Of a stretch of 64,000 nucleotides of DNA, positions 31,074 through 63,336 are shown one piece after another (within the stretch, counting starts at the first letter, position 1; each line of letters begins with the position of its first letter). The stretch comes from Geosiphon pyriformis uo1 (lineage: Eukaryota; Fungi; Glomeromycota), in contig JAAOMT010000470.1 in assembly GCA_016748015.1 (NCBI GenBank), positions 175,788-239,787 on the forward strand, read 5' to 3'. Under the pieces are notes generated by a model. The model saw nothing but the letters and a program-made list of their open reading frames with translations. It ran no database searches and was not told the origin of the DNA. The position numbers were made by a program, and so were the translations under genes.

Positions 31074-34000
31074 TTAGATTTGTCTTATTCATGACAAACT
31101 ATCAGTATTTCCATTTTTTTTTGTAATATACTGTATAATTAAATAGTAAATATTCTATTTTTCATCTAGTATGACAATTATCTCCAAATTTTTGCTTCTG
31201 AATTGAAGTCAATTCTTTATGGTTAGTGTATATGTCAAATTTTTGGCTTAAGTATTTCTTCTATTTCATAACTGCCTAATAAATTGTTAAGTGTTTTAGT
31301 GCTGGTATTCTATAGTTTTTTTCTGCTGAACTTAAGCTGCAACTAGCATATACTACTGGATGTTCTCTTCCATCCAGTCTTTTTTGAGATAGTACTGCTT
31401 CCAATGCTTGATCTGATGCATCAGTTGTAATTATGAATAGCTTGTTATGATCTGAATAGATTAGTACTGGAGCTTGAATAAGCTTTTTTCTTAATGTATT
31501 AAAAGCTTTTTGCTAGTTTTCTGTCCATTCATATTTGGTGTTCTTTGTTTGGAACTGGTATAATGGCTGAGCCAGTTTGGAAAAGTCTTTAATGAATCAG
31601 TAATAGTAACTCACAAATCATAAGAATGCTTGTAATTCAGTCAAGTTGGTTGGTATTGAGAAGTTTTTAACTATCTTAATTTTGTCTGAATCTGTCTTGA
31701 TTCCATTTTTGCTCACAACATGTCCCAAAAATTTTAATTCTGTTTTGCCAAAGAAGCATTTGGTGACATTTAACTTTAATTTGGCTCTTCTTAGTCTTTT
31801 AAATACTTGTTGAAAATAATGTAAATGATTATTGAATGTCTTGGAGAACACATTGGTATCATCTAAATAAACAACTATTAACTTCCACAGTAGTCTAGTG
31901 TAGACAATTTCTATAAGCCATTGAAATGTGGCTAGAGTATTTATTAAGCCAAAAGACATAACTTCAAATTCAAAATTTCTTTTTCGGTTTGTAAAAGCTA
32001 TTTTCTTCTTATCTTCTGGTTTTATGGCTACTTGTCAGTAACCATTGTCTAAATCTAAAGTTAAAAACCATTTTTTTTTTCAAAAACATTGAAAAGTTTT
32101 TGGATTTTTGGGTTTGAATAGCTATCTCTCTTTGTTACTCTATTAAGTTTTTGGTAATCTACACAAAAGTGAATTTTTCCATTCTTTTTATAGACTAGTA
32201 CTATTGATAATAATCATGGACTCATTAATAATTGGATTAATTCATTATTTAACATCTGATTGATTTCTTGTTAAATAATTTTATAGTTTGTTGGTGGTAT
32301 TTGGTATGTTCTCTGTTTAATTGTCATTGCATCTTTAGTTTTGCCAAATTTATTTTTACTGGCAAAAATGTCATTGAAGTTGTTGAGTAATATCTTAAGC
32401 TACATACATTGTAGTGAGTCTAAATTTTCTAAGTTCATCTGTTCTAATTGTTCTGATTGGAGCAGATAACATTCTTCTCATTCATATATTGTTTATAATA
32501 TAATATCTATATATCTACATAGTTGTAGAAAGTCTAAAATAGAGTTTGGTGGTTGTTTTTCAACCTTAGTGCTTAAATATCTGATGGTAGTTCCTTTTGG
32601 TATCTTAATAACATTTTCTGTTGTGTTGTAGATGGGAATTTTGATATGTTTCAGGCTTTTGGCTAATATATAAAGATTGGTAAGTTTAATTTTTTCTGAT
32701 TCATAAATAATAGTTTTCACTTCAAAAATTTGAGCTTAATTTTTTACTCTTTTTTTTATGGCTAACATGTATTGGTTATATGACAGAATAAAAATTAATT
32801 GACAGGTGAAGATAATTTCTTTTTTGTTAAAAATCTTTTCCTCTACTATATTGACTGGTATATCTATTTTACCTATGAATCTAAATCTACTAATTTCTTT
32901 AGCTGTAATTCCTAATTTTTTTCTGTTTCCCACTGATACTAATTGAGCTATTTTAACCAAAAACAAAAATATTGTCTGTGCTATTTTTTTGTTTGGTTCT
33001 ATAATATAAGCCTTTTCTGAGTCATTTTGTAATATTGTAATGATATTTCTCATATATCTTGCCTTAATTATTCTTCTTCTGATATTGATTTCTTTTTTTG
33101 CTAAACTACTCTTAAATGCTAATTAAACTATTATTGTTTCTGGGATTTTTAATGTTACTTTGAAATCAATGCAGATGTGTAAATATGGTTCCAATTTGAT
33201 GGTTTTTTTTCCCAGATATCTTAAATCAAACTTTGTATCAATATTATGTGTGCATTCTGGCATGATATCTTTATTATTATTGCTAAATCATTTAAGTTCT
33301 TGCTCTTTGGTGAAATCAAGAAGTGCAATATATTGTTCTGGGTTTAAATTAAAGTCCAAACTATTGTTATTTTTATTGCCATTTTAAACAAAGCTGGAAC
33401 TATTGTTTTTGTCATTATCATTTTCAAAGTTTGAATCAAGATTGAACTGTAATTTCGATTCTAATATACAATTACTGATTAGTTTTTTCTCTTTAGGAAT
33501 CGTGTAGATTATGTACATCAGTGGATTGTAAATGAGATCACATTCATTACAATATTAGAAGTCATATGGAATTAAATAGTGGCTACATAATAAAGTGTTT
33601 AATTGCTCTAAACATTGTTCTTGTTTCTCTCTAGTGGGTGCTAATTCTTGGTAGTGTTTATGGAATTGTTCTGAGTCTATAGAGTCTAGGACAATATTTG
33701 GATTTGGGCTCCAATTGAGTTTTATGGGTTTTGGTAAGTTGTTTTTAATTGTTTTTATTTCTTTTGGTAATGCTTTTTCAATTTTGACAAGTGCTATTCA
33801 CCATATTTTATCATTATCATGTAGACATCTGTCCAAACATTTTACTGCTCTTCTCTATACTGCTTCTATTGATGTTTTTTTTCTTATCTAATTACTTATT
33901 AAAATCATGTATTGGCACAATTTTTTACACATTTCTCCTTACTCTGGAATGTTATTTTACATTCCTTCATCTAAAAGAGTTTTTTTACATACAAGACATG

Positions 34001-36606
34001 ATTCATTATCCCACTTTTCTTGTTATTTAGGTTATCCAAAACACTCTAGAATACATGATTGGCAATAAAACTTTGTTGCTGTTGTTCATTCCTTGTTATT
34101 ATCATAGCATGCCATAATTAATGCAAATAAGTTTTGGTTGATAATAGTTTAACTGAGTTTGTGGTATATAAGTGTATGGTATATATGTAAAGGTAGTGGC
34201 TTGAATTGGTTTTTCTTCTTTCTTCTTGCCTTTTCCTTTTTCTTTTTCTTCCCAGATAAAAATTAATGGTAGTTTATTATGATTGTTATTGGCTTATGAG
34301 ACTTGATAGGCTTCCCAAGTAGGTTTGTTTACTTTTTTTTTGATATTAATTAGTGATGCTGGTGTAGTCATAGGTTTAAAGTAACTACAAGTTGCTGGTA
34401 TACATATGTGTTGGTTATTTTGGCTAAGTTGCAATTCTTGAATCTTCTAGTTAAGCACAGTGTTTGTCTTGGACAGCCAATTATTACTAACTAAAACTTG
34501 GTACTAAGTGGCTTTTATTACCAATACTTTGATGGGGACAATAATACCATTGACTTTAAAAGAGAAGTTGTCAATTTTGCCAATAGAAGTTTTGATTGGC
34601 CCATCAGCTGTAATAATCCTGATGCTTACCACATGATTAACTTGGTGATCTAATTGGTTTATGAGTTGTCATGTGATAATACTGCCTGCTAAACTGCTGT
34701 TCAAAATCAGTTTGATTGACTGACCATTGATTTTGGCATTAGTGTATATTGTGGTGATAAGTTTGGCATCAAGGGTGGCTTTATTAAAAAGAAATGTTAC
34801 AGTTGGTTCTTCAATTTTGAAAGGAAAAATGACTGTTAGTAATTTGTTGTTGATAACTATTGTTGATAAAATATTGCTGGTAAGTGGTTTTTGGTTTGTT
34901 TTCTAATTGTTGGTTTGGGTGGTTTTGGGAGTCACAAGAAGGCTTAAATAGTTCTGAGAATTCAGGTTTTGGACATATTTAGTTCCCAAATTCCTTGGAT
35001 GCAATCCTGAAGGTTGTTAAGATGTACTAGGAATTGGTTGATGAACAATCATTGCCAATCTCCAATTTTGCTAAACAGTTCTCAGTCTTTGATTTCTATT
35101 GGGCACAGTTATTGGTGATGGTGTTTGAATGGTTTGTAGTTGATACATCACTGATAACTGTGGTGGTTAATATATTATAGGTGTTATTAGTTGATAAATT
35201 AGAAGTATGTACATTGGTTGTTGTGTCATTGGAATGTAATTGAATTGATATTGATCTTGATTTGGATAATAACTTGGAGTTTGAAATCTGCAATCAGAGT
35301 TTTGATATTAATTTTCTGATCATAAATTATTGTTATAAACTCTGCAGCTGGCTCTAATATAATCTTGTTTATCACAATTATAGCAAACATGCATCTTTGG
35401 TTGTTATGGTTAATTGGTTGATGATGATAAACATGTTTGATTTTGGAAATAATTTGAGTTTTCTGAATTATTATGTTATTGTGATGATTGATAGATTGTC
35501 TGATTGTTAGCTAAATACCCTTCTAATTTCTGATTAATTGAATTACTGAATTGTTTCAATTTGGAATCCAAGTCAGATAATCTGTTTATTACTAGATTCA
35601 CAGCTTGGATGTAGTTGGCTTTGAGTTCTGCAGCTTTAAAATCTCTGGCATGAGTAATGGCTGCTTGAAGGTTGGCTGGATGTAGTGAACATATATGTTG
35701 CAGAATGCTGCTGTATAATTTACAAATGAATTAATTCAAGATTTGGGCTATGGTGAAATAATTGGCATTAATGGCTTGGATTTGGCACAAGTTTCTGTGG
35801 AAATGTCTTAGGTAAGTAGTGACTGCTTCAGTTTCTTCTTGCTTGATGATGGCAAAGGCATTGGCTAAATAATTAATACTATTATTGTTGCTAAAATATC
35901 ATAGAAACTCAAGCTTAAATGCATTAAAATCTTGAAGTTTGTTGACTAAACTTTGATATTACAAGTTGGTAGTATCCTGAAGGAAATATGAGATGGTTTG
36001 AAGTGCTTTGGCATTGTTCCATCTATTGGCTGTGATGGCTTTTTCTATATTATTTAGTCATACTTGCACATCATCTTCTTTGCCAGTGAATTTTTTGATT
36101 TTGGCAATTGGTACATATGTTATTAATTGTTGTTATGATAGTTATTGAAGTGGTTGTTGTGGTTGTTATTAAGGTAATACTTGCAACTATTAAATTGATT
36201 CAGTAATTGGTTCAATTAGTGACTAATTGATTACAATTACTGAAAATAAGTATTGCTAATTAATAATGTTAGAATTGAGATTGTTCTGATTTTTTAAAGT
36301 TAAAACACTCAAAGTTTGGTTTTCCAGATTTTCTGAGATTGGATTTTTAGTATTAATTCCTTAATTGCTATTTTTTTCTTCAGAGTCAGTTAATTTTTAA
36401 GGACTGATGACTCTAAAATTTGGTAGTGGTGGTGGTGATTGAACTCCTAATAGCATTGGAAATTATGAGTTAAATCCCTTAAAATAATTACCATATGTTT
36501 CTAATAACTTTGCTTTCTTTTGTTTACTTTGGAATGGAATTCTGTTTAGTGGTGTTGTTATGCTTACTGTAGATGTGTCTATTATATTAATAGTGCTTCT
36601 AGGTGT
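31074..36606 (-). pseudogene. D gag-pol, main part (N-terminal piece continues at 54617-55043)
   Basis: RT YLDDTNVF (31618-31959), dUTPase about 32870-33263, protease about 34400-34760, gag core about 35600-36120. Confidence 0.9.
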
Positions 36607-39601: not shown

Positions 39602-42600
39602 TTAGATTTGTTTTATTTATGACAAACTGTCAGCATTTCTATTGTTTTTTCCTTTCTTATAATGTATAGTATAAGTATATTGTGAGAGTGCCATTTTCTA
39701 TCTGGATTGGCAGCCATCATTACATTCTTGCTTTTGAAGTGATGTTAATCCTTTATGATCTGTATATATCAAACTTTTGGCTTAAGTATTTGTTCCACTT
39801 CATAACTGCCCAATAGATTGCTAAGTATTCTTGTTCTGGTGTTCCATAGTTTTTTTCGGCTGGTGTTAAATTTTGGCTGGCATATGCTACTGGATGTTCT
39901 CTGCTGTCTGGTCCTCTCTGAGATAGTACTGCTCTCAATGCTTAGCCAGATGCATCAGTGGTAATGATGAATTGTTTGTTGTGATCTGGATAAATCAGTA
40001 CTGGAGCTTGAATGAGCTTTCTTTTCAGAATATCAAAAGCTTCTTGTTGACTTTCTGTCCATTCATATTTTATATTTTTGTTTTGCAGTTGGTTGAGTGG
40101 CTGCGCTATCTTGGAGAAGTTCTTGATAAAACGTCAATAGTAGCTGGCAAATCCCAAGAATGATTTCAGTTCTGTTATATTGGTCAGCACTGGAAAGTTC
40201 TTTACTATCTCTATTTTCTCTGGATCTGTTTTGATGCTGTCTTTGCTGACTATGTGTCCCAAGAATTTTAGTTCTGTCTTGCCAAAGAAGCACTTTGTTG
40301 CATTTAACTTTAGTCTTGCTCTTCTTAGTCTTTCAAACACTTGTTGAAGATAATGAAGATGATTATTAAATGTTTTTGAGAATACATTGGTGTCATCCAA
40401 GTATACAACTATTAATTTCCACAATAAGCCAGTATAAATGATTTCCATTAACCATTGGAAAGTGGCTGGAGCGTTGGTTAAGCCAAATGGCATCACTTCA
40501 AATTCAAAATTCCCTTCTCTAGTAGTGAATGCCATCTTCTCTTTGTCGGCTGAATTCATGGCTACTTGCCAGTAACTACTGTTCAAGTCTAATGTTGAGA
40601 ACCATTTGTTCCTGCCAAAAGTGTCGAATAATTCCTGTATTCGTGGAGTTGGATAACTGTCTCCACGAGTTACACCATTGAGTTTCTTGTAGTCCACACA
40701 AAATTGAATTTTTCTATTTTTTTTATGGACAAGTACCACTGGTGATAACCATGGGCTCATTAATAATTGAATTAGTTTGTTGTCAAGCATTCAGTTTATC
40801 TCTTAACGAATGATCTCGTGGCTGGCTGGTGGCACTCTGTATGCTTTTTGTTTAATTGGTATTGTATTTTCAGTTTTAATCTGATGCTGGATGATGTCAG
40901 TTTAGCCAAACTTGTTTTCACTGGCAAAAATGTCATTGAAATTGTTGAGCAATATCTTGAGCTGCATATGTTGTAGTGGATCTAGATTTCCCATGTTCAT
41001 TTGTTCCAATTGTTTTGGTTAGAACAAATAACATTCGTTTCATCCATAGATTGTTTGTGATGTGATGTTGACATATCTACAAAGTTGTGGAAAGTTTGGA
41101 ATAGGGTTTGGTGGTTGGTCTTCTATTTCTGTGGTTAAATATCCAATGGTGGTTCTTTCTAGTATGTTGATAACATTGTCAGTGTTGTTGTAGATGGGAA
41201 TTTTTATGTGGCTATAGCTTTTGGCTGGTAGGTGGAAATTGATCAGTCTAATCTCTCCTGATTCACAAAGGTTTGCTTCAGCTTCAAAAATCTGTTCTTG
41301 CTCTTTTTTCTTCTTTTCTATTGCTAGCATGTACTAGTTATATGGTGGAATGGAAATAGCTTGACCAGTTGAGATAATTTTTCCTTGGCCAACAATTTCT
41401 TCCTCTGTCATATTAATTAGTACATCTATTCTATCTATTGACCCAAATCCCTGTATCCCTCTTACTGTTATTCCTAATTCTTCCTTATTTTCCATTGGTA
41501 CTAACTAAGCTATCTTAACCAATGGTAAGAATATTGCCTGTGTTATCTTTTCATTTGGCTGTATTATATAGGTCTTTTTTGAGTCATTTTGTAGCATAGC
41601 AATGATATTTCCTACATATCCCACATCAATTATTCCTCCTCTTATATTAATCTCTCTTTTTACTAAACTACTCTGGAATGCTAGTTGAACTATTGTTGTT
41701 GCTGGGATTTCCAGTGCTATTTTCAGGTCAATGCAGGTGCATGAATGTGATTTCAATTTGATGACATCTTTTCCTGGATATCTTAGATCAAACCCTGTAC
41801 CGGTATCATGCACTCGTTCTGGCATGATGTCTTTGCTATTGTCACTGTATTATTTCAACTCCTGTTCTTTAGAGAGATCTGGTAGAGCAATGTATTGTTT
41901 GTAGTTAAGATTGGAGTCTGAATTGTTGATATTTTTGTTGCCATATTGCATGGAACTGGAACTGGTGTTTTCATTGTCATTATTGTTGGAGTTTAAATTG
42001 AGATTGTAAACTAATTTCGATTCCAATGCGCAGCTGTTGGTTGGTTCCTCTTTCTTAGGGATTGTGTAGATCATGTATGGTAGTGGATTGTAGATGAGGT
42101 CACACTTATCACAATATTGAAAGTTACATGAAATTAAACAGTGGTCACATAATCTGGTGTTTATTTCTTCCAAGTATTGCTCCTGTTTCTCTCTTGTGGG
42201 TGCTAACTCCTGGTAATGTTCATGAAATTGCTCTGGATCTAAAAAATTTATGACTGGTTCTGGGTCCCAGTCAAGTTCTATGGGCTCTGGAGGATTGTTC
42301 TTGATCTTTCTGATCTCTTTGGGTGTTGCTCCTTTTATTTTGGTGATTGCCATTTTCCAAATTTTGTTGTCGTCATGTGAACAACTATCTAGTCGTTGCA
42401 TGGCTCTTCTCTAGGCTGCTTCTATTGGGGTTCTTTTCCTTATCCAGTCGCTTATTAGAATTGTGTATTGACATGACATGTCACACGTTCTTCTATGTCT
42501 TGGAATGTTGTTCCATATCCCTTTATCTAACAGGGTCTTCCCACAAGCGAGACAAAGTTGGTTATCCCATTTTTCTTGTCTCTTTAGTCATTCAAAGTGT

Positions 42601-45275
42601 TTAAATATGCATGGATGATAGTAAAACTTTGTTGCGATGTGGTATTCCTTATTGTTGCCACAGCATGCGCCCATTGACGACAGTTTCTTGCTGCAATTGA
42701 CGCATACAAGCTTTGGCTGATGATAATTGGATTGTTGTGGAGTGTGATGGGTGTAAGAATTATAAATAGTAGCAGTTGGTGGCATTTCTTCTTTCTTTTC
42801 TTTTCTTTTTCCCTTATCTTTGTTTCATTCCCAACTTGAGACTTCTTCTTGTTCATTGTCAGTCCAAGTCAGATCATCAGTTTCCCAGATAAATTCATTT
42901 GTTTGCTTTTTTTTCTTGTTGTCATCCCAAGAGAGTATTGGTGGCAGCTCATTGTACTCTTCGTTAGCCCACGACACTTGGTAAGCTTCCCAGGTAGGTT
43001 TTGGTTTCTCTTCCTCAAAGTTAATTAGTGGTGCCATGGTGTTGGTAGTCTTAAAGTGGCCACACATTGCTGGTACATGCATGTGTCACCAGTTCTGGCT
43101 GATTTAAAGCTCTTGTGTGTTCCAGTCCAGAGTGACATTTGTCTTGGACAGCTAGTCATTACCAATTAGAGCTTGGTATTGGATGGCTTCCATAACAAGT
43201 ACTTTAATTGGAACTATAATGCCATTAATTTCAATTGGTAAGTCATTGATTTTACCAATTGGAGTCTTGGTTGCTCTATTAGTCATGATGATTCTGGCAC
43301 TAGCAGCTCAATCAACTCGGTGACCTAATTGATCCATGAGTTGTCATGTGATGATGCTGCCTGCTGAACCACTGTCAAGAATTAGTTTGATGGGATGGCC
43401 ATCAATTTTCACATTAGTGTACATGGCTGTAATTGGCTTTTCTTCTAGTGCAGCTCCACTGAATAATGGCATGGTTAACAGTTTCTTAAGTTCGAATGGA
43501 AAAATGGCGTCTAGAGATTCATCTTCAGTGATTGTGGCAGGTAGAATGTTGCTGGTAGGTGCTTGTTTGAGTTCTCAGTTGTTGGGTGTGGCATTTTCTG
43601 AAGTAACCAAGAGACTTAAATAGTTTTGGGAATTCAGGTTTTGGATGGCGCCTGTACTCGAATTCCGAGAACGGGGTCCTGAGCTTTGATAAGAGGAGCT
43701 GGAGATTGGTTGATGAACAACCATTGCTGATCTCTAATTTTGAGCAATTCTGGATCTCGGGTTTCCTGATTTCATTGTAGCTGAGTTTTGGAGCAGTGTT
43801 TGGATTGATGGTTGAGACTAATAAATTATTTGGGGCTGCGGCTGATAAATTATTGAAGGCTGCTGTTGATAAATTGCTGGTGGCTGCGGTTGATAAACTG
43901 GAGGTTGATATACTGGCAGTTGATAGATTGGTTGCTGCATTATTAGCAGGTAAGTATTTTGATATTGGTTTTGATCTTGATTTAGATAATGATTCAGAGT
44001 TTGGAACTGGCAATCAGGATTTCTGTATTGATTTCCCAATCATTGGTTGCTATAAGTATGGCAATTAACTCGAATATAGCCTTGTTTACTACAGTTATGG
44101 CAAACACGTGTTTCTGGCTGCCATGACTGACTAGGTGCTGCAGATGATAATGGATGTGACTGATTTTGGAAATGATTCATGTTTCCTGAATTATTGCATC
44201 ATTGTAGTGGTTGATATATGATGCGATTGTCAACTAAGTATCCCTTTAATTTCTGATTAATTGACTCACTGAATTGTTTCAATTTGGAATCCAATTCAGA
44301 TGATCTATTCATGACTAGGTTTACTGCTTGGGCGTGGTTGGCTTCTAACTCAGCTGCTTCAAAATCTCTGGCATGTGTAACTGTGGTAGGAAGGTCAACT
44401 GAATGCATTGGGCATATTTGTTGGAGGAGGTTACTGCACAAACCTCTAATAAATTAGTTCAAAATCTGTGGTGCTATAAAATAGTCAGCTTAAATTGCTT
44501 GGATTTGGTGCAGGTTTCTATGAAAGCATCCCAAGTAAGTGGTGACTGCTTCAGTCTCTCCTTGTTTGATGGTGATGAAAAGGTTAGCTAACTTGTTAAT
44601 GCTATTATTGTTACTGAAATATCTTAAGAATTCTGTCTTGAAGTCGTTGAAGGTTTGAGATTTGACAGCTAGACTTTGATACTATGCATCTGTGGTGTCT
44701 CTTAGAAAGTATGGGATGGCTTGAAGTGCTCGGGCATCATTTTATCTATTCACAGTAATGGCTTTCTCTACGTCATTCAGTCATACTTGCGCATCATCCT
44801 CTTCACTGATAAAGTTGTCAAGTTTTACAATTGGTATGTAGGCCATTGGGTCTAAGTTAGGTTGTTGTGATGGCTGTTGAAGTGGTTGTTGTTATACTGG
44901 TTGTTGGAGTGGTAGTTGAAATGACTGCTGTATGGGTTTGGCTATTGGATTAATTGGTGGTTGATTGATAACAATTACCGGAGGTAAGTTTTGCTGATTA
45001 ATTAATTCGGGGTTTGGATTGTTCTGTCTTTGATGTTTTGAAGTTTTGATTTCTGAATTTTCTAGATTTAAATTTTGCTGAGCTTGAAGGTTTGGGGTTT
45101 CAACTTTCAGGTTTTTGATAATTGGTTGTTGATAAGTAAATTCTTGATCTTCACTTTTTTCTTCTTCTTTCTCTGATAATTCTCACAGAGTAGTGATTCC
45201 GAAATCTGGTTGTGCTAGTGGTAATCGAATTCCTGATGGCGTTGGGGATTGTGATTTAAATCCTTCAAAATACAT
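39602..45275 (-). pseudogene. E gag-pol, main part (N-terminal piece at 53155-53704)
   Basis: RT 40134-40790 (MPFGLTNAPATFQ, YLDD), dUTPase 41440-41825, LILDSGSAGS near 43370, CHNC.K.G.I..NC knuckle. Confidence 0.93.
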
Positions 45276-46244
45276 TGTTACCAAATGAAATTAGAGATAT
45301 TATTTAGCATAAAATTATCTTATAATTCCTATCATTAATTAGCATATATTATCATTTTAAATGATCACTTATTACATTAGCAAAAAAATGTCCAAAATTA
45401 TTATTTAATTAATAACTCAAATTGTACACAACACAAATGTAACCTAATTGCGATGATCAATCATGCAATACCCTGAACTATGTAACATTCAGAAGTTTGC
45501 CAAAATTTGTAGAAATTTGCTGAAATAATTGATAGTTTACCGAAATATCTAATAGTTTGCCAAAATAACTTGTAGTTCGCCGAAATGTATCTTTAGTTCA
45601 GCAAAATTGTAGAAAATAGCAAAGTTCAAGTTCATAGAATAGTGTTACAACAAGTTGTATAAAAGAAGAGCTTCTCTCTTTGAGAAAATGTATCTTACTT
45701 TAGATTTATCACTTAGAACCATTCCTACATACACAAAAAGAAATAAATATAAAACCAAACTCTTTAAATTATTGCACTTGGAAAATCCTTAAAACCCAAC
45801 TAACATTTTGAAATTGATTAGCTACCAATTTCAGTAAACTGTTAGTGACTCCAGGCCTGGATAGAAAACGTTTCCCTTGATAAAATTTCATTTCTTTTAC
45901 ATTTTTTTTATTTTCTTTTATTTTCTTATCATAATCATTAGAGTAACCTACAGACAAGATTCCTGTAGAAGAGTTGACTTTCACAGCAAAGTAACTACAC
46001 ATTTTTTGTGAACTTCCAGACGAGCAATTTCTGGGAAAGAGTTGACGTTTACTACAATGTAACTACATAAAGCAACTGGCACGGAATTGGCCATTCCACT
46101 TATAAGCCCAGCAGTTCAAATTATAGGAGATAATTTGAAGATAAATTCAGTTATTGGAGGTTCAACCACATCCAGAAAACGTGAATTTACAGCAAATAAG
46201 TATCAACAACATTACAGAAAAGAGACCAAAAACCTCCAGTAATA
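45276..46244 (+). repeat. 5' LTR of G
   Basis: TGTTAC...GTAATA; homologous to the F LTRs. Confidence 0.95.
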
Positions 46245-46292
46245 TTTGGTGCTCTCCCACGGAAATAACACAGCAAAAAAAACAACTTCAAA

Positions 46293-49200
46293 GTGGTGAC
46301 CACACCAGACACAACAACTCTAAAGTATTACCAATCAATTTACACCCACTGCAAGCAAAGATTCAACATTCCAGACGGAATTGAAGTTGTCAAGAAATCA
46401 GTATACCAATACATTAAAAACCGCATCAACAATTATCTTTTTGGAAATTACAATATCTCAGAAGTTAGAAGCAACTTTTACAATAATTTAGCACACTATT
46501 TACAGTTGGAAACTGAAGACCTTAATAGTGAAACACTTGCCACTTACTTTCACAAACTTAATTTTAACATTATCAAATACTGTGAAGAAACATATCCAGT
46601 GCAGTCTCAATACACTATTGATTTTGAATCAGAAACAGAAACAAGCAACAAAGGCAAAAACAAACTAAAGCAATATTCAAGAACCACCCCAAATACTCCA
46701 ACACTACCAAAAACAACTGCCAAACATTTACAAACACCTGAACAAAGAACCAGCTCAAAACTTCCACTTACTATCACACCTTTTCTAGCTTTACTTGCAC
46801 AAACACAAACACCTAATTCACCCTTGAATCAATTTGCAAGACCAGAAGATTTTACATCACTCAGAAGTCCCACCAGACAACAAGAACCCCTTCAAACTAG
46901 TTCCAATCTCCTTGATTTTCTAGCTGAAAATCAAAGTAAACACTCTGTGACAGCAGCAAATGAAGAAAACAACTCTGAAATAACTGAAGAAGAATCAATA
47001 GACAGTGAAAACGAAGAAGACGAAATGACAACATACATCACAAAAATCCCTGAATTCAATGGAGAAGATATTGAGACCAGTCTTCAAGAATGGCTCGACC
47101 AAGTTACTAAAGCTGAAGATGCAAATGGATGGAATGCTGCCAGAATGTTAAGAACAATTCCCTACTTTCTCAAAGAAACAGCAGAAGAATGGTTTGAAAA
47201 CCTTGCCGCCCCATTCAATGATTGGAATGCTTTCAAAGCAGCCTTCCTTGAACAGTTCACCGACAATAATACCTCCATCACTCTTCGCAATTGTTTTCGA
47301 AATATCAAACAAGAACCCTCCAAATCCATTATGACTTATATTGGGAAATTCAACAAACTTCTCAGACGGATTCGCCAACTCGAGACAAATGATTATTATT
47401 CTGATGCTCAAATCTTGGATCAATTTATCACTGGTCTAAAAGATAAACTAATTAAAAAGGTTCACCCACACACGCCAGAAGATTTAAACTCTGCCATACA
47501 GCATGCGAAAAGATACAAAATGGCCATGGAAGAAGCCAATCGTACAAAACTTGTAAATTTGGCAATTGGAGAACCCAGCTCAGCAGCTGAGAAAAAAATT
47601 GACCAACTCACAAAGAAGGTCAAAAACTATTTTTCCAACCAACAACAACAACAACCCCAAAGATATCAACCACCCCAAAAACGAAATCAAAATAACTTTG
47701 CACTACTTTCCAATAACCAGCCCCAGAATTGTCATTACTGTGGAATCTCCGGCCACTGGAAAAGAGATTGCAGAAAGCTACAACGAGACCAACAAAATAG
47801 GGGTAATCAACGTTACTCTCCACCACAGCAATCTTATTATTAACTATTACCACCAGCTTACTATCTATCAAGACCCCAATACCAAAATAACTATTATCAG
47901 CCTGCCCCACAACCAATCCAACAGCAATACCAATAACCACTCACACAACATTATCAAGTACCTGCTCGAAGACTGATTACACAAAATCAATTCACACCAC
48001 AAAACTGATACCAAGTAAACAACAGTAGAATCAATTCAAACAACCAATTGGTTCCCCAAAATACCACTCAACCAAGATCCAACCATTACCACACTCAACT
48101 TAGTTATTTAACAATGCCAGAAGAACAGGATTTTCACCATACTACATCCTCAGAAGGTAGAGCTGCAGCACAACAACAACGAAATCCTTTTCATAACCAC
48201 ACCACTATTCCACCAGCCTGAATTGCTAAAAATGCCAATCTCTCTGATATCTTTCCTTTTGAATTTGAAGCAAATGAATCACCATTCTTGCTTAGCAATG
48301 CAGCGGCTAATGAGCAAAAAGCCATCACTGCAATGTATGCAGAAGCTGAAGTAGAAGGAAAGCCAATTCGCTTGATTCTAGACAGTAGATTTGCTGGAAG
48401 CATTATTACCTACTAGTTAATGCAACAGTTGAAAAGAAATGTTGACCGACCAGCTCAAACAGTAATCGTCATTGCCGATGGCATGAAAAAGACACCAGTA
48501 GGAGAAATTGACAATTTTCCATTCACTCTTGATGGAATCACCATTTCAGTCAAAGTTCTTGTAATGGACGCATTCCAGTACCAAGCTCTCGTCAGAAATG
48601 ATTGGCTTCAAAAAGCCAATGCTAATCTGAATTGGGAAACACAAGAGTTAATAATCTCCTACCAAGGACAACACGCCCGAGTACCTGCCATTTGTAGTAC
48701 ATTCAACAAACGCTCTAAAAAAGCCCCAGCTTTTGAATTTGAACCAGAAGAAGAAAAACCAATAATCGAAACATTTATGGCTCTTGGATCAATGTCCAAC
48801 TGGGCCGATGAAACAGAACAAGAACATTTTATCCCACACACTAAACCTGAAACCTCTGAATGGAATATATCTTACTCAAAACTCGAACCAAGAAAACAAT
48901 GCCCCTATATTCCCCTTAAATGTAAGGACTGCCACAAGAAACTATTGTCAATGGGAGCCTGCATTTCACCTGAAGAAGAATATGAGAATCATACTTGTTA
49001 TTACTGCAAGGCTTGCCACAGAGAGCAATGGGGCCATCTAATAAAAAGGAGCAAAAAATGGAACAATACCCCTTGTTTGACTTGTGGAGATATGCTACCA
49101 GAAGAATGCAATTGGATTGATGTAGCAATGAGAGGAGGCGTCTGCAATCAGACCTGCCAATATGCTTTATCAATTTCAGAAAAAGTAAAAAGAAGAATAC

Positions 49201-51914
49201 TCTTTAATGCAGCATACAATAGTGCTCTCAACAAACTTTATCACTACCCTCATAATGCCGAGATGATTTTCGACTTAGCAATGGCATTAATTAATGGAGC
49301 TACCAAAAAAGATGTTTGTCAAATGAAGGAAGCAGAATACATTGAATACACTATGGAATTAGCTGGATTCAATTATGAAGATGAAGTAGAAGTCTACCAC
49401 CAAATTGCAAATCACACCTACCTGACCCAAGAAGCTCAAATTCAATGATTAGAGCAAATGAACATTAGGCTATGTGAAGAATGCATTATGCCTTGCGATG
49501 AACAGTGGTGTTTTGAATGCTATGCTTTTAGTATCCCCTTGCCCAACGAGAATGATGAGAATGAAATTGAATTTGGAGAACCTAAAGAAACAGAAGAAAT
49601 TGAAACAACACCCATCTACCTTATTGAAAATCAGTCTGCTTTACAACTTAAATACTTCAACAACAACGGACAAGGAATAAAACCCAAAAAGACACACAAA
49701 ATTGATGCTGGATATGACCTAAAATATCCAGGCAAAGATACTCTTGTTCTCAAACCCAAATCTCTCACAAAAATCAACCTCAAAATTGCACTCGAAATCC
49801 CATCAGGAGCAATGGTTCAAATCACCTCCCGGTTCTCTCTGGCAAGCAAAGGAATCAATGTCAGAGGAGGAATTATTGATGCTGGATATACTGGAGACAT
49901 AACAGTGATGCTTCAAAATGAAACTGACAAACCATTTAAGATCGAACATGCTGAAAAAATTGCCCAAGCTATTTACCTACCCTTAATCAACATTTCGGGT
50001 TTGCAACTAGTCAATCAAAGAGAACAATTAAGAAAAAGCGATAAAGGAACCCAAGGTTTTGGTTTAACTGGACGATTCACAGTTCCAGTTAATATAGCTC
50101 TTAACACACAAAACAAATCCCACCAGATTCTCAGACTTCCACAACCAATTACCATCTCACCTTTTGGAGAACATCTGGAAATCTACATTTGCACAAAGCC
50201 AACAACCACACAACAAATTTTTGAGTCCAATGAACAAGTCTGCTTGGAACATAATATTTTGATCCCAAACATTTATATTCTAGAAGAAACAAAGAAAGTC
50301 CGAGTTACTTTTTACAACCCCAATAATTACCCCATAATTTTATTAAATAATTTAGAAATTGGAGTTATTTACAGTAATATATTTCAATAAGAATTACCCC
50401 AAACAGTCCCTGATTTCCCTGAAATTATTGGACATTCACTACTGAAAATCAACCCAAACCCTAGCTCTGAAAACTACTATGTTGTCATGGAAAAACTATC
50501 TTGAATCAACATGGGACAACTTGAACTATAACAACAAACCCAGCTCAAAGAACTAATTGCAGAATTTGCTGATATCTTCGCCGAAAACAACAATAACTTA
50601 GGAAGAACTGATTTGGTTCAACACCAAATCTATACAGAAGATGCCAAACCCAGATGACAACAAGTCTACCGAGTTGCTCCAGAAAGTCACCAATTTATCT
50701 GAGAAGAAGTACAACGGATGCTTAACAATAGGCTTATTCAACCATCAATAAGCCCATGGGCCTCACCTGTGGTTCTAGTTAAAAAGAAAAATGGAAAGAT
50801 ATGATTTTGTGTTGATTACTGACAACTCAACAGTGTCACCATTGAGGATGCCTACCCTCTTCCCCAAATTGATAATATGTTGGATGCCCTTGGAAAGTCC
50901 AAATACTTTTCGACATTAGATTTAGAGAGTGAATACTGGCAAGTTGCTATGGATCCCAAAGACCGCCCCAAAACAGCATTCACCACTCAAGGAGGAAATT
51001 ATGAATTCAATGTAATGCTTTTCAGATTATGCAATGCACCAGCAACATTCCAAAGACTCATGGATGTTGTTTACAAAGGCCTCCTTTGGAAATCAGTAGT
51101 AGTTTATCTTGATGACATTGATGTTTATTCACCATCTTTTGAGCTACATTTAAGTCACCTGCGAGAAGTTTTTCAATAATTACGGAAAGCAGGATTGAAA
51201 CTAAACATTGAAAAATGCTACTTCGGAAAAACAAGTTTAGCTTTTCTTGGTCATATTGTTAGCAAAGATAGAATTAAACCAAACCCTGGAAAAATCAGTA
51301 CTATCAAGAACTTTAAGACTTCACAAAATACCACAGAATTAAAAGGATTTATTGGATTAGCATCTTATTACCGAAAATTCATCAAAGGATTCTCAGAAAT
51401 TGCAAAACCCTTCAACCAGCTCACTACTAAAAATGTCGAATACAAATAGACAGAAGAACACCAAAATGCCTTCGAGATACTTAAAGAAAAACTCACAACA
51501 GCTCCAATCCTCACCTACCCAGATTTTAGCAACCGATTCTGGTTAGCAACTGACGCCTCTTATACTGCCTTTGGTGCCATCCTATTACAGTTAGATGACA
51601 ATGGAAATGAGCAAGTAATTGCTTATGCTAGTAGAACATTAAAGCCAGCCGAAAAGAACTACCCCACAACAGAATTAGAAACCGCAGCAGTAATCTGGGC
51701 CCTACATCACTTCAACCTTTACTTCAGACTCAAAGAATTCAATATTATCACTGATAATATTGGACTTAAATGGCTTCAAAACAAAAACACCCAGCTGAAC
51801 ACAAAACAAATCCAATGGACAAGATTTTTAGCTAATTACCGATACATCATACACCACAAACCAGGAAAACTCCACACCAATGTTGATTGTCTCTCAAGAA
51901 TGAGGCAAGATTAG
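46293..51914 (+). pseudogene. G gag-pol: one 1874-codon frame (Gag, CCHC, PR, Cys-rich, dUTPase, RT, RNase H) broken only by nonsense mutations
   Basis: ORF-track pieces starting at 46293, 48420, 49458, 50877 and 51195 are all in frame; CHYCGISGHWKRDC; DAGYDL/GIIDAGYTG/KIAQ/GTQGFG; YLDD; ends CLSRMRQD*. Confidence 0.95.
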
Positions 51915-52173
51915 AAAACAAAACCAACACCCATCTGAATTAACAGCATCAAAACAACAAACAATGAACTCTGAAAACTACAACAATCTCAAACAATATT
52001 TTCTACACAACAACATTATCTATTATTAAAATTTCAAAAACCCAACCAAACCACTCAGATTAATACAAGAACCAGAAAAAGAGACCAAATTTTTTCAATA
52101 ATTTTGGATTATTATCTGGAAATAACAGACAGTACTTGGACTTCGATGGAGCTCAGTCTTGAGGAGGAGGTTA

Positions 52174-53154
52174 TGTTACCAGACGAAATTAGAGATATTA
52201 TTTAGCATGAAATTATCTTATAATTCCTATCATTAATTAGCATATATTATCATTTCAAATGATCACTTATTACATTAGCAAAAAAATATCCGAAATTATC
52301 ATTTAATTAATAACTCAAATTGTAAACAACACAAATGTAACCTAATTGCGATGATCAATCATGCAATACCCCGAACTATGTAACATTCAGAAGTTCGCTG
52401 AAATTTGTAGAAATTTGCCGAAATAATTAATAGTTCACTGAAATATTTAATAGTTTGCCGAAATAATTTGTAGTTTGCCGAAATGTATCTTTAGTTCAGC
52501 AAAATTGTAGAAAATAGCAAAGTTCAAGTTCATAGAATAGTGTTACAACAAATTGTATAAAAGAAAAGCTTCTCTCTTCAAGAAAATGTATCTTACTTTA
52601 GATTTATCACTTAGAACCATTCCTACACACACAAAAAGAAATAAATATTAAATAATTCGAAAAACCAAACTCTTTAAATTATTGCACTTGGAAAATCCTC
52701 AAAACCCAACTAATGTTTTGAAATTGATTAGCTACCAATTTCAGTAAACTGTTAGTGACTCCAGGCCTGGATAGAAAATGTTTTCCTTGATAAAATTTCA
52801 TTTCTTTTACATTTTTTCTATTTTCTTTTATTTTCTTATCATAATCATTAGGGTAACCTACAGACAAAATTCCTGTAGAAGAGTTGACTTTCACAGCAAA
52901 GTAACTACACATTTTTTGTGAGCTTCCAGACAAGCAATTCCTGAGAAAGAGTTGACATTTACTACAACATAACTACATAAAGCAACTGGCACGGAATTGG
53001 CCATTCCACTTATAAGCCCAGCAGTTCAAATTATAGGAGATAATTTGAAGATAAATTCAGTTATTGGAGGTTCAACCACATCCAGAAAACGTGAATTCAC
53101 AGCAAATAAGTATTAACAACATTACAGAAAAGAGACCAAAAACCTCTGGTAACA
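52174..53154 (+). repeat. 3' LTR of G
   Basis: Direct repeat of 45276-46244. Confidence 0.95.
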
Positions 53155-57624: not shown

Positions 57625-60600
57625 TTATGTGTGTCTCATTCTTGACAAACAGTTAGCATTAGCATTTTTGGTACCTTTTTTGTATTTGATAATATAATTG
57701 TATGGTGCTAACGTTTGTGACCATCTGGCGTATTTTCTTTTTAGCGCTTTCTTGTTATTTAACCAGACCAGACCTCTATAATCTGTTGTAATCTCAAAGG
57801 GTTGGTACTGTAAATATGTGTCAAAGTGAACACAACTCCAGACTACTGCTAAGCATTTAAGTTCATGTGCTGCATAGTTTTGTTTTGCTGTACTGAGATT
57901 TCTGCTGGCATAAGTGATTACACGTTCTCTTCCATTATCATTTTTTTGTGACAGAATGGCTCCAAGTCCAGTTCCAGAGGCATCTGTGGCCAAAATGAAT
58001 TTCTTGTTGAAATTCAGATAGATTATTATTGGTGATTCAATGAGCTTTCATCTAAGGTACTTAAAAGCTTTTTGTTGTGCTTTGGTTCATTCAAACTTCA
58101 CATTTTTGGATAGTAAGTAATTAAGGGGTTTGGCGATGTTTGAAAAGTTTTTTACAAAGTGACAGTAGTAAGATGCAAGTGCTAAAAAGCTTCTAACTTC
58201 TGAAACGTTTCAAGGTACTGGAAAATTTTTCACTTTGTCTATTTTTGATGGATCTGGTTTTATTTCATCTTTTCCAACTACGTGTCTTAAAAATGCTAGC
58301 TTATTTTTCTCAAAGAAACATTTTTCTAGATTTAGTTTAAGTCCAGTGTGTCTCAATCTCTCAAAAACTTGTTGTAAATGTTGGAGATGATCCATGAATT
58401 TTGACAAGAAAACATTTGTATCATCTAAGTAGACAACAACGGATTGCCACAGAATTCCGGAGTAAATTATGTCCATTAGTTTTTGGAATGTCACGGAAGT
58501 GTTTGTTAATCTAAATGGCATTACATTGAACTCATAATTGTTATTTTGTGTTGTGAATGCTGTTTTATGCCTGTTCTTTGGGTCCATTTCCACTTGCCAG
58601 TACCCACTGGTCAAGTCCAGTATAGAAAACCATTTTGCTCCTCCAAAAACATCAAAAATTTTGTCAATTAACAGTATTGGGTATGAGTCTTTGGTTGTTT
58701 TGCTGTTTAGTTTGCGATAGTTGACACAAAATCTAATTTTTCCGTTCTTTTTTCTTACTAAAACAACTGGTGAGGACCATGGGCTCATTAATGGTTGTAT
58801 TATTCTTTTTTCCAACATGCTTTGAACTTCTTTTCTGATAAAATTATGCTCCATTAGTGGGACACGGTAAGCGTGTTGTTTTTCAGGTCTGGCATCTCCA
58901 ATGAGAATTTGGTGTTGAACCAAGTTGGTTCTTCCAAATTTGCCATTTCGTGAAAATATATCAGAGTATTTTAAAATTAATGCTTTTAATTGTTGCTGTT
59001 GGTCAGGATCCATTGTTCTAATGTTTAATTTGGCCAATTCTTCTGGTGTAAATTGATAGCATTCTAATGGTTGTTGCCAATTTATTGAAGTGAGTTCACA
59101 GTAGAGGGCAATTTCTGGGAAATTTAGAATTTCTTGTGGTATTGACGCATTTTCTAGCTCCGTTCCGAGATATCCAATAATGGTATCTTCCGGAATGTAG
59201 ACAGTTTCTTCTGTGGTGTTTGCAATAGGAATTTTTATCCATTGAGCTTTATCAGCTGGAATAAAAAGATTAGTAAGTCCTATGAGAAACTGTTGGCAAG
59301 TTTCTGAATAGGGCTCAAATATTAGGTCTTTTTCTTTAATTGTCCTTTTTATTCTTATTTCTGATTTTCCATATAGTAGAAGCGTGATGGACCACTCATT
59401 TTTAATTACTTCGCCTTTTTCCTTTATTGTTTCAGTGAAATTCACTTCAATTCCTTTTCCTGTTGATCTGAAACCAAAAGTTCTTCTCGTTGTTTGTGAC
59501 AATTTTTTACAATTTTCTACTGACACGAATTTCCCAATTTTTACCAATGGTAGAAAAATTGCTTGTGCAATTTTTTTCTTAGATTTAATGATATAAGGCT
59601 TTTCTGAATTGTTCTGTAGCAAAACCATCAAATTTCCAGTGTATCCAGAGTCAATTACTCTTCCTTGAACACTTATTCCTTTTTTTGCAAGGCTTGATCA
59701 CAACACTATTTGAACCATTATTCCTGGCGGAATTTTAACCACTATTTTTAGGTCAATTTTGGTGATGCTCCTGAGTGGTAATGTTGTGGATTGGTCTTCC
59801 GGATAATGTAGATCGAATCCGGCGTTGGTTGGATGAACTCTTTCAGGTATTATTCTTAAGTGCCTGTTGTCAAAGTATTGGATGTCAGTTATCTGTTCTA
59901 AGTCGGTATAGACTACAAATTTTTCTGACTTGGGACCGTCAGGTAAGTCTTGTTGATTTATTGATTGATTTTGAGACTGCTGATTCTCAATTTCCATTTT
60001 TCTTTCTAAGCCTTTTTTGTCTTGACACTCTTCACAGCACTGATTTTGGCACAGGATGAGACAGTTTTCACAGAGGTAAGTGTTAATTTGGGCGAGATAT
60101 TGTTCTTGCTCTTGTCAAGTGGGACATAGTTGTTAGTAGTAGTTCTGGAATTCGTCCACTGGGTCGAACATGTTGTAGCTGGTAACTTTGTCGGCTACTT
60201 CGGCTGACTCTTTCCAACATTGTATTTCTTCGGCAGTTCCTCTTCTTACTTTGGCTTGTACAGTATTGTACAATTTGTCCTCATCGTGTGAGTAGTGCTG
60301 TAGTCTTTTTAATGCTCTATTGAATGCTGCTTTGAACGGCATTCCTCCTCTTATCCAGTCACAGATGAGGATTGTGTATTGGCAAGTTGCATTACACATT
60401 CCTCCTCTGTCTGGTATGTCATTCCAGTCACACCCTCTTGGTAACGGTTCTCCACAAGTGAGGCATAGTTCCTCGTCCCATTTTCCGTGTCTTTCTGGGT
60501 AACCGTATTTTTCTTTGTTACAATAGTTACAATAGTAGTGGGTGGGGTTTCTTGGGTCTTTGTCTGGTGCACTACACACAGTCATAGACAAGAGTTTCTT

Positions 60601-63336
60601 CTTGCAAACCGAGCATTCTAACTTTGGTCTGCGTCACTGGTGGTTTCTTTGTGAACTTACCTGGTTCTATTCAGATCTTTTTTTGCTGGTCCACATTGGT
60701 ATGGCTGGTAGTCCTGTTCTTTGGTCATCAGCCCAAGAGAGCTGATAGGTTTTGATGACTGGTAGTGCTGGATTTTCCTCAAATTTGAAAGTAGGTCTTT
60801 GGTTGGCACTGGGTTTTTGGAAGTGGTCACAGGTGGCTGGAATTTTGGCCTGGTGGCCATTATAATTGATCAGAAGCTCTTGGGTGGTCCAGTCTAGGGT
60901 GGTGTTGGCTTTTGTTAATCAGTCATTCTCTACTAACACTTGATATTGTGTAGTATCCATTACTAATACTTTTGTAAGTATTACTATGTTGTTAATTTCA
61001 AAAGGAAATGAGTCGATTTTGCCATAAGGCAGCTTTGTACTTCTATCGGCTGTTATGATTTGGGACGTTGCAGCACGATCAACTTTGAAACCCAGTTGGT
61101 TTACTAGTTGAAGCATTACGATGCTTCCAGCAGATCTGCTGTCTAAGATAAGTTTGATTGGGATATTGTTTACAGTGGCTTCCGTATACATAGCAGTGAT
61201 TGGGCGTTTTTCGTCTAATGCTGTTCCACTAAACATAGCCTCGTTTTCTTCTAATTCAAAAGAAAAAATAGCTATGAGGCTGCTATTTTCAGTGGCAACT
61301 GCTGGTGGTATTGTCTGGCTCAATTTGTTGGAGGAATTCTTGATTCTGTTTATGTTTTTACCATTATTATTTCCAATGATCAGATTTTCTGGTATATTAA
61401 GATAAGTTTGTTGATAATTTTGGTAGTTTGGATTGGTTTGCTAATTGGTTTCGGCGTGGTTTGGATTCCTCTGGACCAACGCATTCTGGTTCTACATGGG
61501 CTGATTTTGGGCCTTGGGATGTCAATTCGGGTTGGCTATCATGGGCTGTTGCTGGTAAGCTCCTTGATTTTGATACATGATGGGATATTGGTGTAGTATT
61601 GGTATGTACTGGTTTCTGGGCATTTGGGGTGGCATGTAGTAATTATTTTCGTGTGCTTTCTGCATCATTTGCGTTCGACATTGACTAATCAAATATCCTA
61701 CGTATTTGCAAAAATGGCAAGCACGCGTTTCTGTTCTGAATTCCTGGCGCAATGAGCGATTATTTCAACTGTTGTTGACTTCCTGGCTGCGTTTTTGGGG
61801 TGGTTGGTATGTATTTCTTCCCAGATCCGGGATGAGGTAACTTTCTATTTTCTTAGAGAGTTCCTCCCCTAATTGTGTTACTCTTTTCTCTAATGTTTCT
61901 GTCTTATTTTCCTCCATTACCATGTTAACTATTTGACTATGGTTAGCTTCTTTCTCAGCCAATTCAAGGACTCTGGCGAGCGTAATGGCTTCTGGTAAGG
62001 AATTAGGGTGGGTAGGGTGTACTTTTCCTAAAATGCTACTTTTTAATCTTCTAATAAACTGATTTAAAATCTGAGGATCAGTGTAGTATCCTTGTTCAAT
62101 CGCTTCAATCTAATGACAAATTCAATTGAATTGAGCAAGGTATTGGGTAACAGTTTCACTGGTATTTTGCTTGATAGTATTGAATTCATTCTGTAGTTGG
62201 ATTATGGTATTTGGGTTGCTAAAATACTCCAGGAGTGCATTTTTAAATTTGGTGAAGCTTGTGAGTTTTGTTTCCAGGCTTTGATACCACGAGTTGGCTG
62301 TGCCTTTCAGGAAGAAAGGTAATGTTTGAATTACTCTTTGGTCATTCTAGTTATTTGCTTGAATGGCTTTTTGTGCTTCTCTGAGCCATGTGTGCACGTC
62401 TATTTTTTTTTCCTCTCCTGAGAAATCTGTTAGCCTTGCAATGTATGGTGTGGTCATTTCGTTGCTGTTTTCTGCTGGTGGACTTATTGGTCTAAGAGGA
62501 AGTGGGATGATATTTCCTTGAGCATTCCTAAAGGTGACTTCCCTTATATCCAGTTCTTCCTCTTGATCACAAGTTTCTTGGTTTCTGGACTGGCTGCTTG
62601 TTCCAGTAACTGGTCTTGTGATTGTTTTTTCGCTGGTCTCTTTTTCGGATTCCAATTCAGACTCCTCTTCATGGTTTTCAAACCCCATTCTAAATTTTGG
62701 CTGAAAAAAAGGGTTTTGAAATAGTGATGAATATTCTCCTGTAATTGGTATGTCTCTCCAGTTACATTGTTTAATTTTATCAGTATAACTAGGAGTTCTT
62801 GGCATTTGTGGAGTTGATGTTGATGATGATGCAGCTCTTAATGGAATTTGTATCTTATTTTCTGGTGAAAAATGGTATGATTTATCTTCTGGTAAATAAA
62901 TATGTTGTTTCTTTATTGATTAAGTGACAGTTTTCTTTGGTGTTTGAGCTGGTGTTCCTAGTTTTTGCTGGTTACTTTCCTGATTAGTTTCTAAATTTTT
63001 TTTGGTTTTGTTGGCACGTTCCCTAGTGTTTCCTGTGGATATTGGAAAATTTTCGTTGGTGTATTGCTCAATTTTTCAATGGATTTTGACAATAGTTGCG
63101 GCTATTACTGCTACTTCTTTTGTAGTGTATTGTGATAATTCTCTATACAATCCAAGTTTTGCGTCGTGTGGTTCTTCTTCCTTTCCTATATGATAATTTA
63201 TTTTGGCATTGATATAATAAGTGAGGGCAGATTCTGCTGGACAACACCCTTCTGGTAATCCAAGATCACTTTGATTTTGTGTGTAAATAGCATGGCAGAA
63301 TTCAAGAACAATAAGATTAGGGGTTTTTGTTACCAC
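57625..63336 (-). pseudogene. H gag-pol: one 1904-codon frame broken only by nonsense mutations
   Basis: ORF-track pieces starting at 63336, 62805, 61323, 60591, 59997, 59631 and 57993 are in frame; CHFCKYVGYLISQC, LILDSRSAGS, AGFDL, YLDD, ATDASGTGLGAIL. Confidence 0.95.

Follow-up and report, generated by a model that had tools for sequence, protein, structure and literature searches.

A conserved cysteine-rich domain with three predicted zinc fingers between the protease and dUTPase of Geosiphon pyriformis Ty3/Gypsy elements

Ty3/Gypsy retroelements of the fungus Geosiphon pyriformis carry a cysteine-rich domain of about 205 amino acids, with 13 conserved Cys, that is in frame with Pol and lies between the aspartic protease (PR) and the dUTPase. 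It is a conserved accessory domain of Pol with three predicted zinc fingers and a predicted helical core, and our tentative suggestion is that it functions as a protein-binding adaptor rather than as an enzyme.

Copies of the domain were located by tblastn, with copy G as the query against the window, i.e., the whole 64,000-nucleotide stretch of DNA that was analysed (E 3e-146 to 9e-14; Table 1). All seven window elements that have both a PR and a dUTPase carry the domain between them, with the reverse transcriptase (RT) following, and so the domain that the first-pass annotation placed at this position is real. None of the seven has lost it. The seven elements are all decayed, and the six domain copies in which in-frame stops were counted have from one to 11 of them.

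The elements are assigned to Ty3/Gypsy because gag has a capsid and a CCHC knuckle and pol has the order PR-RT-RNase H-integrase. The dUTPase lies between PR and RT in the window elements, as indicated by Pfam and the layout. The integrase is 3' of RNase H in elements F and E and has been lost from element G. The LTR pairs of G and F start with TG, the two LTRs of F are 91% identical, and TGGTGCTCTC, a primer-binding-site-like sequence, follows the 5' LTR in both elements. A chromodomain was not found on either of the two integrases scanned, those of F and E (chromo families, E up to 0.5; stops read as X). Chromoviruses carry a chromodomain at the integrase C-terminus, and these two integrases do not show this feature.

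Table 1. Features of element G and copies of the Cys-rich domain in the window
Feature	Positions	Strand	Remarks
5' LTR, element G	45276..46244	+	followed by a primer-binding-site-like TGG run
gag frame, element G	46269..47843	+	capsid; single CCHC knuckle at about 47727-47777
Aspartic protease, element G	48333..48698	+	one stop; Pfam Asp_protease_2 matches the F and H copies
Domain copy G	48903..49520	+	about 205 aa; tblastn match 48900-49520; one in-frame stop at 49446-49448
Predicted zinc site 1 (copy G)	48921..49016	+	C-x2-C-x24-YC-x2-C
Predicted zinc site 2 (copy G)	49074..49157	+	C-x2-C-x19-C-x3-C into first long helix; low model confidence
Predicted helical core (copy G)	49158..49463	+	mostly acidic; contains YPH(D/N) block and the stop at 49446-49448
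Predicted zinc site 3 (copy G)	49473..49520	+	C-x2-C-x3-C-x4-C-x2-C
dUTPase, element G	49650..50075	+	Pfam dUTPase, E 7e-21
RT and RNase H, element G	50649..51911	+	stops present; integrase absent downstream
3' LTR, element G	52174..53154	+	94% identical to 5' LTR
Domain copy F	18751..19368	+	82% identical to G; element integrase without chromodomain
Domain copy H	60025..60621	-	37% identical to G
Domain copy B	13812..14441	-	34% identical to G
Domain copy E	42102..42710	-	33% identical to G; element integrase without chromodomain
Domain copy D	33540..34118	-	28% identical to G; frameshift at 5' end
Domain copy A	3129..3758	-	27% identical to G; tblastn match 3156-3746; most decayed

The known range of the domain is narrow. 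The domain searches returned 312, 322 and 427 matches, the named relatives are Geosiphon pyriformis proteins, and hundreds of the 'hypothetical proteins' of this fungus are pieces of this domain of Pol. An intact Pol, P0234, is encoded on a metagenome contig; its domain is 34-46% identical to those of the window lineages and is also directly N-terminal to the dUTPase. The tree of the domain follows the PR/dUTPase/RT tree, and the domain was already in place before the four lineages represented by G, H, E and P0234 diverged. The first-pass annotation had suggested that it may be a captured domain that binds chromatin or RNA or counters silencing. This ancestry, together with the observation that all 350 flanks of at least 60 aa map back to the same retroelements, speaks against a traceable donor.

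The Cys content of the domain is 8.0%, versus 0.4% in the rest of the P0234 Pol. The 13 Cys form three clusters that are kept across the four lineages, and 12 of the 39 columns identical in all four are Cys; the same 39 columns include no His, no Asp and one Glu, and His is not a conserved ligand. In the six window copies checked, Cys has been lost six times from the 13 conserved columns, each time to a TAY codon, which is one G-to-A step from a Cys codon. The dN/dS of the domain is 0.15-0.31 (computable in 12 of 15 pairs) and exceeds 1 in no computed pair, with synonymous sites near saturation between lineages; in the between-lineage comparisons the flanking linkers have a much higher dN/dS. 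By these rates, the domain is under purifying selection. The dN/dS values, the Cys conservation and the structural model agree with the earlier proposal of a folded module with several probable zinc sites.

Distances for the domain are 1.39-2.04, compared with 0.47-1.11 for PR, dUTPase and RT; this roughly twofold faster divergence may reflect relaxed constraint. The rate and the missing donor would suit a passenger that was captured once with the dUTPase and was kept as a folded spacer harmless to Pol processing; other dUTPase-bearing fungal Gypsy elements are also described, in the available part of the source, with no mention of such a domain (PMC2864245). However, a passenger is hard to reconcile with 13 Cys and a hydrophobic core that are kept across lineages as distant as 34-46% identity to P0234, with a dN/dS well under that of the linkers, or with seven window elements that have all retained the domain, and we consider this explanation quite improbable. 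A twofold faster divergence is also what one would expect of a binding surface and not of an enzyme core.

The first-pass annotation described the domain by a composite pattern, of which the Cys clusters hold and the literal blocks do not, since they are not in all copies. YPHD occurs letter for letter in one of the seven window copies (copy G has YPHN), RGG.C occurs in two and CQY in six, and the intact P0234 lacks all three. Therefore, the view of YPHD and RGG as essential blocks is not supported, and the YPHD His, which is Glu in P0234, and the RGG block are probably not catalytic.

This replacement of His by Glu counts against an enzymatic role for the domain, for instance as a RING-like E3 ligase, deaminase or nuclease. 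There are some hints of such a role: RING and PHD are among the weak Foldseek matches of the first model, RING-CH ligases and endonucleases are among the weak viral ones (E 0.32 and above), and copy G has a PCxxC word. RING and PHD fingers have C3HC4 or C4HC3 spacing, and zinc-dependent deaminases have an HxE ... PCxxC motif. Spacing patterns were scored across 358 domain-bearing proteins, with a separate tally for the seven window copies, and the RING, PHD and deaminase patterns were each found in 0 of the 358. As no fold match reached E 0.001 either (Foldseek, both models, viral matches included), an enzyme is the least probable of the explanations and we regard it as very doubtful.

No significant domain match was obtained in Pfam, PHROG, NCBIfam, PDB, Atlas or the fold searches, and the earlier statement that the domain matches no standard Gypsy domain is upheld. 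In particular, none of these searches strongly matched a domain previously described for this position. Confidence in the two models is modest (mean pLDDT 62.5 and 68.5, pTM about 0.4). In the AlphaFold2 model of P0234, site 1 is a treble-clef-like hairpin-hairpin-helix (pLDDT 86-87 in the vicinity of the Cys pairs), and the helical core has pLDDT 77-89. The site 3 pattern is present in six of the seven window copies and in P0234. The Cys spacing fits three zinc sites, and three zinc ions are likely bound. The pairing of the Cys is ambiguous because pairs 2 and 3 are also spaced 17-18 residues apart in 84 of the 358 proteins. A C-x-H-x12-C-x2-C arrangement within about 40 aa was found in 0 of the 358; a looser form (C-x-H-x9-14-C-x2-C) occurs in 19, and among the window copies only in E and D.

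LIM fingers bind proteins, and their tandem spacing is C-x2-C-x16-23-H-x2-C-x2-C-x2-C-x16-21-C-x2-(C/H/D). LIM-domain proteins are nine of the 46 Foldseek matches listed for the P0234 model (E 1.9-5.9, 39-62 columns) and are absent among the matches for the first model. LIM is also sub-significant in the site 1 sequence search (E 5.9) and in Atlas (0.80), and it is not among the 10 Pfam families matched by site 1. The LIM spacing pattern occurs in 0 of the 358 proteins and 0 of the seven window copies. The sub-significance of every LIM signal, the lack of LIM matches for the first model and the missing LIM spacing count against an adaptor.

In the main rival to the adaptor reading, the domain would remain fused to the dUTPase and tether it to the element's RNA or cDNA, or to the RT complex, keeping dUTP low at cDNA synthesis, by analogy with betaretroviral NC-dUTPase. 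The position directly N-terminal to the dUTPase in all seven window elements and P0234 would suit a tether, as would a finger 1 that is basic in all seven sequences scored (net +2 to +10) and is preceded by 20 residues with a pI of 9.7 in P0234. There are also precedents in NC-dUTPase itself (PMC4531489) and in Juno elements, where an extra zinc knuckle adjoins the dUTPase (PMC5408684), as far as the available parts of these sources go. However, NC-dUTPase is basic (PMC4531489), whereas the domain, linker and dUTPase together have a pI of 4.9 in P0234. In addition, a CCHC knuckle pattern occurs in just one of the 358 domains and in none of the seven window copies, gag already supplies the element with a CCHC knuckle, and the linker to the dUTPase (41-84 aa) is poorly conserved between lineages and acidic in P0234. 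A tether is thus a serious possibility, although we think it rather unlikely. The acidic charge of the domain itself (pI 4.7 in P0234) also makes a general RNA chaperone role less attractive.

The adaptor reading would work as follows. Zinc would be bound at the three predicted sites, the element's protease would release the domain from Pol, the domain would be packaged in the particle, and the N-terminal finger and helical core would contact a protein. The partner would most plausibly be a host factor met at nuclear entry or integration, and the domain would then replace the chromatin-reading module that the elements lack. Several observations count for an adaptor: the Cys spacing fits three zinc sites, the P0234 model gives a finger at site 1 and a helical core, LIM proteins recur among its sub-significant matches, no His/Asp/Glu motif stands out among the 39 invariant columns, the domain diverges faster than the enzymes, its overall charge is acidic although finger 1 is basic, and neither the F nor the E integrase has a chromodomain at the threshold used. 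A targeting role needs an extra contact because the domain is not attached to the integrase.

Pol is a low-abundance, packaged product, and this, as well as the location of the domain inside Pol with no separate ORF, argues against an anti-silencing factor that would act on the element's own DNA or on a host methylation or RNAi protein. Such a role would fit the CpG depletion of the window (observed/expected 0.21) and the excess of transitions between the two LTRs of G (43 of 44 differences), which together suggest heavy methylation. GATA and CDCA7 zinc fingers are also found among the weak Foldseek matches (E 5.0-5.9), and in G. pyriformis LTR elements are reported to account for 41.2% of the genome (PMC11952901, available part). 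Nevertheless, the copies are heavily decayed and the domain displays no positive selection where dN/dS was computed, and so anti-silencing seems improbable. We give equally little credence to a bolder proposal, i.e., that a new three-zinc fold in place of a chromodomain is excised from Pol, attaches to a host protein of chromatin or silencing, directs integration or protects new copies, and helped the lineage to take about 40% of the Geosiphon genome.

The domain is a real but modest addition to the known parts of retrotransposons: the parts list of LTR retrotransposons gains an unnamed, selected, predicted multi-zinc domain. Because P0234 is an intact natural copy, the domain is testable at the bench. 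The predicted treble-clef-like finger, ending in YCxxC and a helix, weakly resembles the LIM fingers of CRIP, CRP1 and MLP/CRP3 (PDB 1iml, 1b8t, 2o10), but this resemblance has no significant score, the spacer is 24 residues, and the LIM spacing with its His ligand is absent, as noted above. CERV of the C. elegans element Cer1 (PMC10309623) is likewise an accessory protein that is restricted to one lineage of LTR retrotransposon and contains Cys, and no RNA-binding motif was recognised in it in the part of the source available. The likeness is by description only, and CERV differs: it is a nuclear protein in its own right, has a single Cys loop and has been shown to act in RNA export.

Among fungi, dUTPase-bearing Ty3/Gypsy elements include PosPlaTy3-5 of Postia placenta and elements of Phanerochaete and Tuber (PMC2864245). 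PosPlaTy3-5 has its dUTPase between protease and RT, as do the Geosiphon elements, and the likeness is one of layout only; the available text on it and its kin describes chromodomains, which the two Geosiphon integrases scanned lack, and leaves unmentioned the Cys-rich domain that the Geosiphon elements have. The predicted zinc sites of this domain are all-Cys and three in number, in contrast to the CCHC knuckles of betaretroviral NC. The NC-dUTPases of MPMV and MMTV (PMC4531489) also have a zinc-finger module immediately before the dUTPase, but in the available part of that source NC derives from gag, has 81-95 aa and is basic, whereas the domain is internal to Pol, about 205 aa and acidic; the basic pI of NC-dUTPase is not found here. 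The Juno LTR retrotransposons of bdelloid rotifers (PMC5408684, available part) similarly have an extra zinc module near the dUTPase in the PR-RT interval, in that case a single knuckle after the dUTPase instead of a large multi-finger domain before it. Together, the Juno knuckle, the betaretroviral NC-dUTPase and the Geosiphon domain support a pattern in which zinc modules are recruited beside retroelement dUTPases.

Among the matches listed, the Cys-rich segment of about 205 amino acids between protease and dUTPase is an accessory domain of Ty3/Gypsy Pol that is real, unnamed and of narrow range. Decayed Ty3/Gypsy elements lie clustered in the window, which comes from a genome in which LTR elements make up 41.2% (PMC11952901), and tblastn found seven copies of the domain there (A, B, D, E, F, G and H). 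The order protease-domain-dUTPase holds in all seven window elements having both enzymes. In the alignment of window copies, F is 82% identical to the reference copy G and the remaining copies are 26-36% identical to it.

Positions of element G and of other conserved segments in the window
Feature	Position (strand)	Remark
5' LTR, element G	45276-46244 (+)	
gag, element G	between 5' LTR and protease (+)	with CCHC knuckle
Protease, element G	48333-48698 (+)	
Domain, copy G	48903-49520 (+)	
dUTPase, element G	49650-50075 (+)	
Post-dUTPase segment	50076-50390 (+)	~110 aa, conserved; matching segments in F, H, E, P0234
RT + RNase H, element G	downstream of dUTPase, RNase H end at 51911 (+)	
3' LTR, element G	52174-53154 (+)	94% identical to 5' LTR
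Extra frame, E/B/D-type elements	37474-38118 (-), 9208-9858 (-), 29018-29620 (-), 3-239 (+)	~215 aa, after integrase up to 3' LTR
N-terminal gag extension	46269-47027 (+), 16210-16868 (+), 62869-63360 (-), 54591-55058 (-), 53282-53704 (-), 26958-27380 (-), 6212-6643 (-)	~140 aa, upstream of capsid, conserved

A word-indexed search with copy G returned 312 matches among longer proteins and a profile from the seven window copies 322 of similar length; all 120 rows listed in each search are hypothetical proteins of Geosiphon pyriformis. When 1.84 billion representatives were searched by profile, 427 matched at E 0.001; of the best 150, 130 were new and blastp assigned every one of them to some window copy, and the 277 weaker matches may include relatives from other fungi. 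Ten of these were checked for source: nine come from Geosiphon and one, here called P0234, is an ENA record, a Pol fragment of 1064 amino acids without stops that has protease, domain, dUTPase and RT. With the P0234 domain as query, three of 70 candidates were P0234 itself and two Geosiphon proteins. All flanks of at least 60 amino acids in the 358 domain proteins (191 upstream, 159 downstream) match window elements, and therefore these flanks provide no non-retroelement context. Internal gaps are common in the Geosiphon proteins and are probably artefacts of gene models that skip stops.

The first-pass annotation could not assign the segment to a standard Gypsy domain, and this agrees with our searches, as no Pfam, PHROG or NCBIfam family was found on it at cut-off or recurrently. 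PDB sequence, Atlas and fold searches gave no significant matches. The one recurring resemblance, below significance, hints at LIM: nine of the 46 Foldseek rows listed for the P0234 model (E 1.9-5.9), one sequence-search row (E 5.9) and one Atlas row (0.80). The fold search with the G model gave no LIM rows, and none of the 358 proteins has the LIM spacing. RING, PHD and deaminase patterns were likewise absent from the 358 proteins, as was the spacing C-x-H-x12-C-x2-C.

Thirteen conserved cysteines form three clusters, C-x2-C-x24-YC-x2-C (site 1), C-x2-C-x19-C-x3-C (site 2) and C-x2-C-x3-C-x4-C-x2-C (site 3), the last preceded by about 105 mostly helical residues. Presumably the domain binds zinc, and more than one Cys pairing is possible. 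The conserved words reported earlier persist in many of the 358 proteins (YPHD in 84, RGG.C in 111, CQY in 287); none extends to P0234. AlphaFold2 gave pLDDT 62.5 for the G domain (29 sequences) and pLDDT 68.5, pTM 0.39 for that of P0234 (135 sequences). Both models have the helical core; in the P0234 model, site 1 is a hairpin-hairpin-helix and sites 2 and 3 are modelled poorly. Across G, H, E and P0234, 39 columns are identical, including 12 cysteines and no His or Asp; that the domain is an enzyme is the least probable of the readings considered.

Domain dN/dS is 0.15-0.31 in 12 of the 15 copy pairs compared without the frameshifted copy D, three pairs being saturated; G-F, the best-resolved pair, gives 0.27. 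Where it could be computed, the ratio lies at 0.09-0.18 in protease, 0.12-0.38 in dUTPase and 0.11-0.20 in RT; the upstream linker gives 0.20-1.22 and the downstream linker 0.76-1.29. A passive spacer is an improbable reading of the domain, one step above an enzyme. Protease, domain, dUTPase and RT trees (unrooted, six or seven sequences, without D throughout, without A for dUTPase and without B for RT) agree on the order in which G+F, P0234, H and E/B/A are separated, and therefore the ancestor of these lineages already had the domain. Within E/B/A, the protease and domain trees disagree on the order, and support at one node of the RT tree is 49. Distances are roughly twice as large for the domain (1.39-2.04) as for the enzymes (0.47-1.11).

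Six copies counted hold 1-11 in-frame stops each (translated as X). The stop of G at 49446-49448 (profile position 183) is the codon where many Geosiphon proteins end, and is likely a mutation hot spot in the G family. In six window copies checked, all six lost conserved Cys are now TAY codons, consistent with post-insertion decay. The window's CpG observed/expected ratio is 0.21, 43 of the 44 differences between the G LTRs are transitions (11 at CpG, 20 at CpA/TpG) and TpA is under-represented (0.73); together these point to a likely methylation-type decay rather than classic RIP. Element G (45276-53154) has two LTRs and no integrase, an internal deletion, since only the last stretch of an F-type 3' region remains between RNase H and the 3' LTR.

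The extra post-integrase frame is conserved (copies 38-66% identical to one another) and has no Pfam family at cut-off; element F has an unmatched frame there (~23300-23990). The gag extension has no Pfam match, and related pieces lie in LTR-proximal fragments with no pol nearby. The post-dUTPase segment is reminiscent of another dUTPase-like beta fold in degenerate form; comparison by hhalign gave a probability of 0.9% (E 0.058). The stretch at 23990-26831 is truncated and carries an F-type LTR next to a piece that has only gag, in the opposite orientation (25860-26354); this repeats the arrangement at 43438-46242, and these are nested or co-duplicated insertions.

Site 1 is basic in all seven sequences scored. 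The domain as a whole is acidic in five of them, P0234 (pI 4.7) among these; the two basic ones are E and A, the latter being the copy with the most decay. This acidity, the invariant residues that do not look catalytic, the fast-evolving surface, the LIM-like finger of the model and the absence of a chromodomain from both integrases scanned lead us to favor, tentatively, a non-enzymatic zinc-finger adaptor that would bind a protein partner without catalysis. An anti-silencing factor is doubtful, and ranks third, just ahead of the spacer.

No description of the domain was found in the literature searched, whose reach stopped short of the Geosiphon genome papers; the part consulted of an Entomophthora preprint mentions only dUTPase enrichment. 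A dUTPase between protease and RT is already known from fungal Gypsy elements (PMC2864245) and bdelloid elements, of which Juno has an additional zinc knuckle (PMC5408684). In betaretroviruses, a basic nucleocapsid is fused to dUTPase and is proposed to keep the enzyme where RT acts (PMC4531489). Tethering of the dUTPase, second in our ranking and rather unlikely, has this better precedent and fits the domain's position; however, it failed the charge test and also the knuckle test, as only one of the 358 domain proteins has a CCHC knuckle pattern. CERV is an accessory protein that contains Cys, and it shows that such a protein can be indispensable for an LTR element (PMC10309623).
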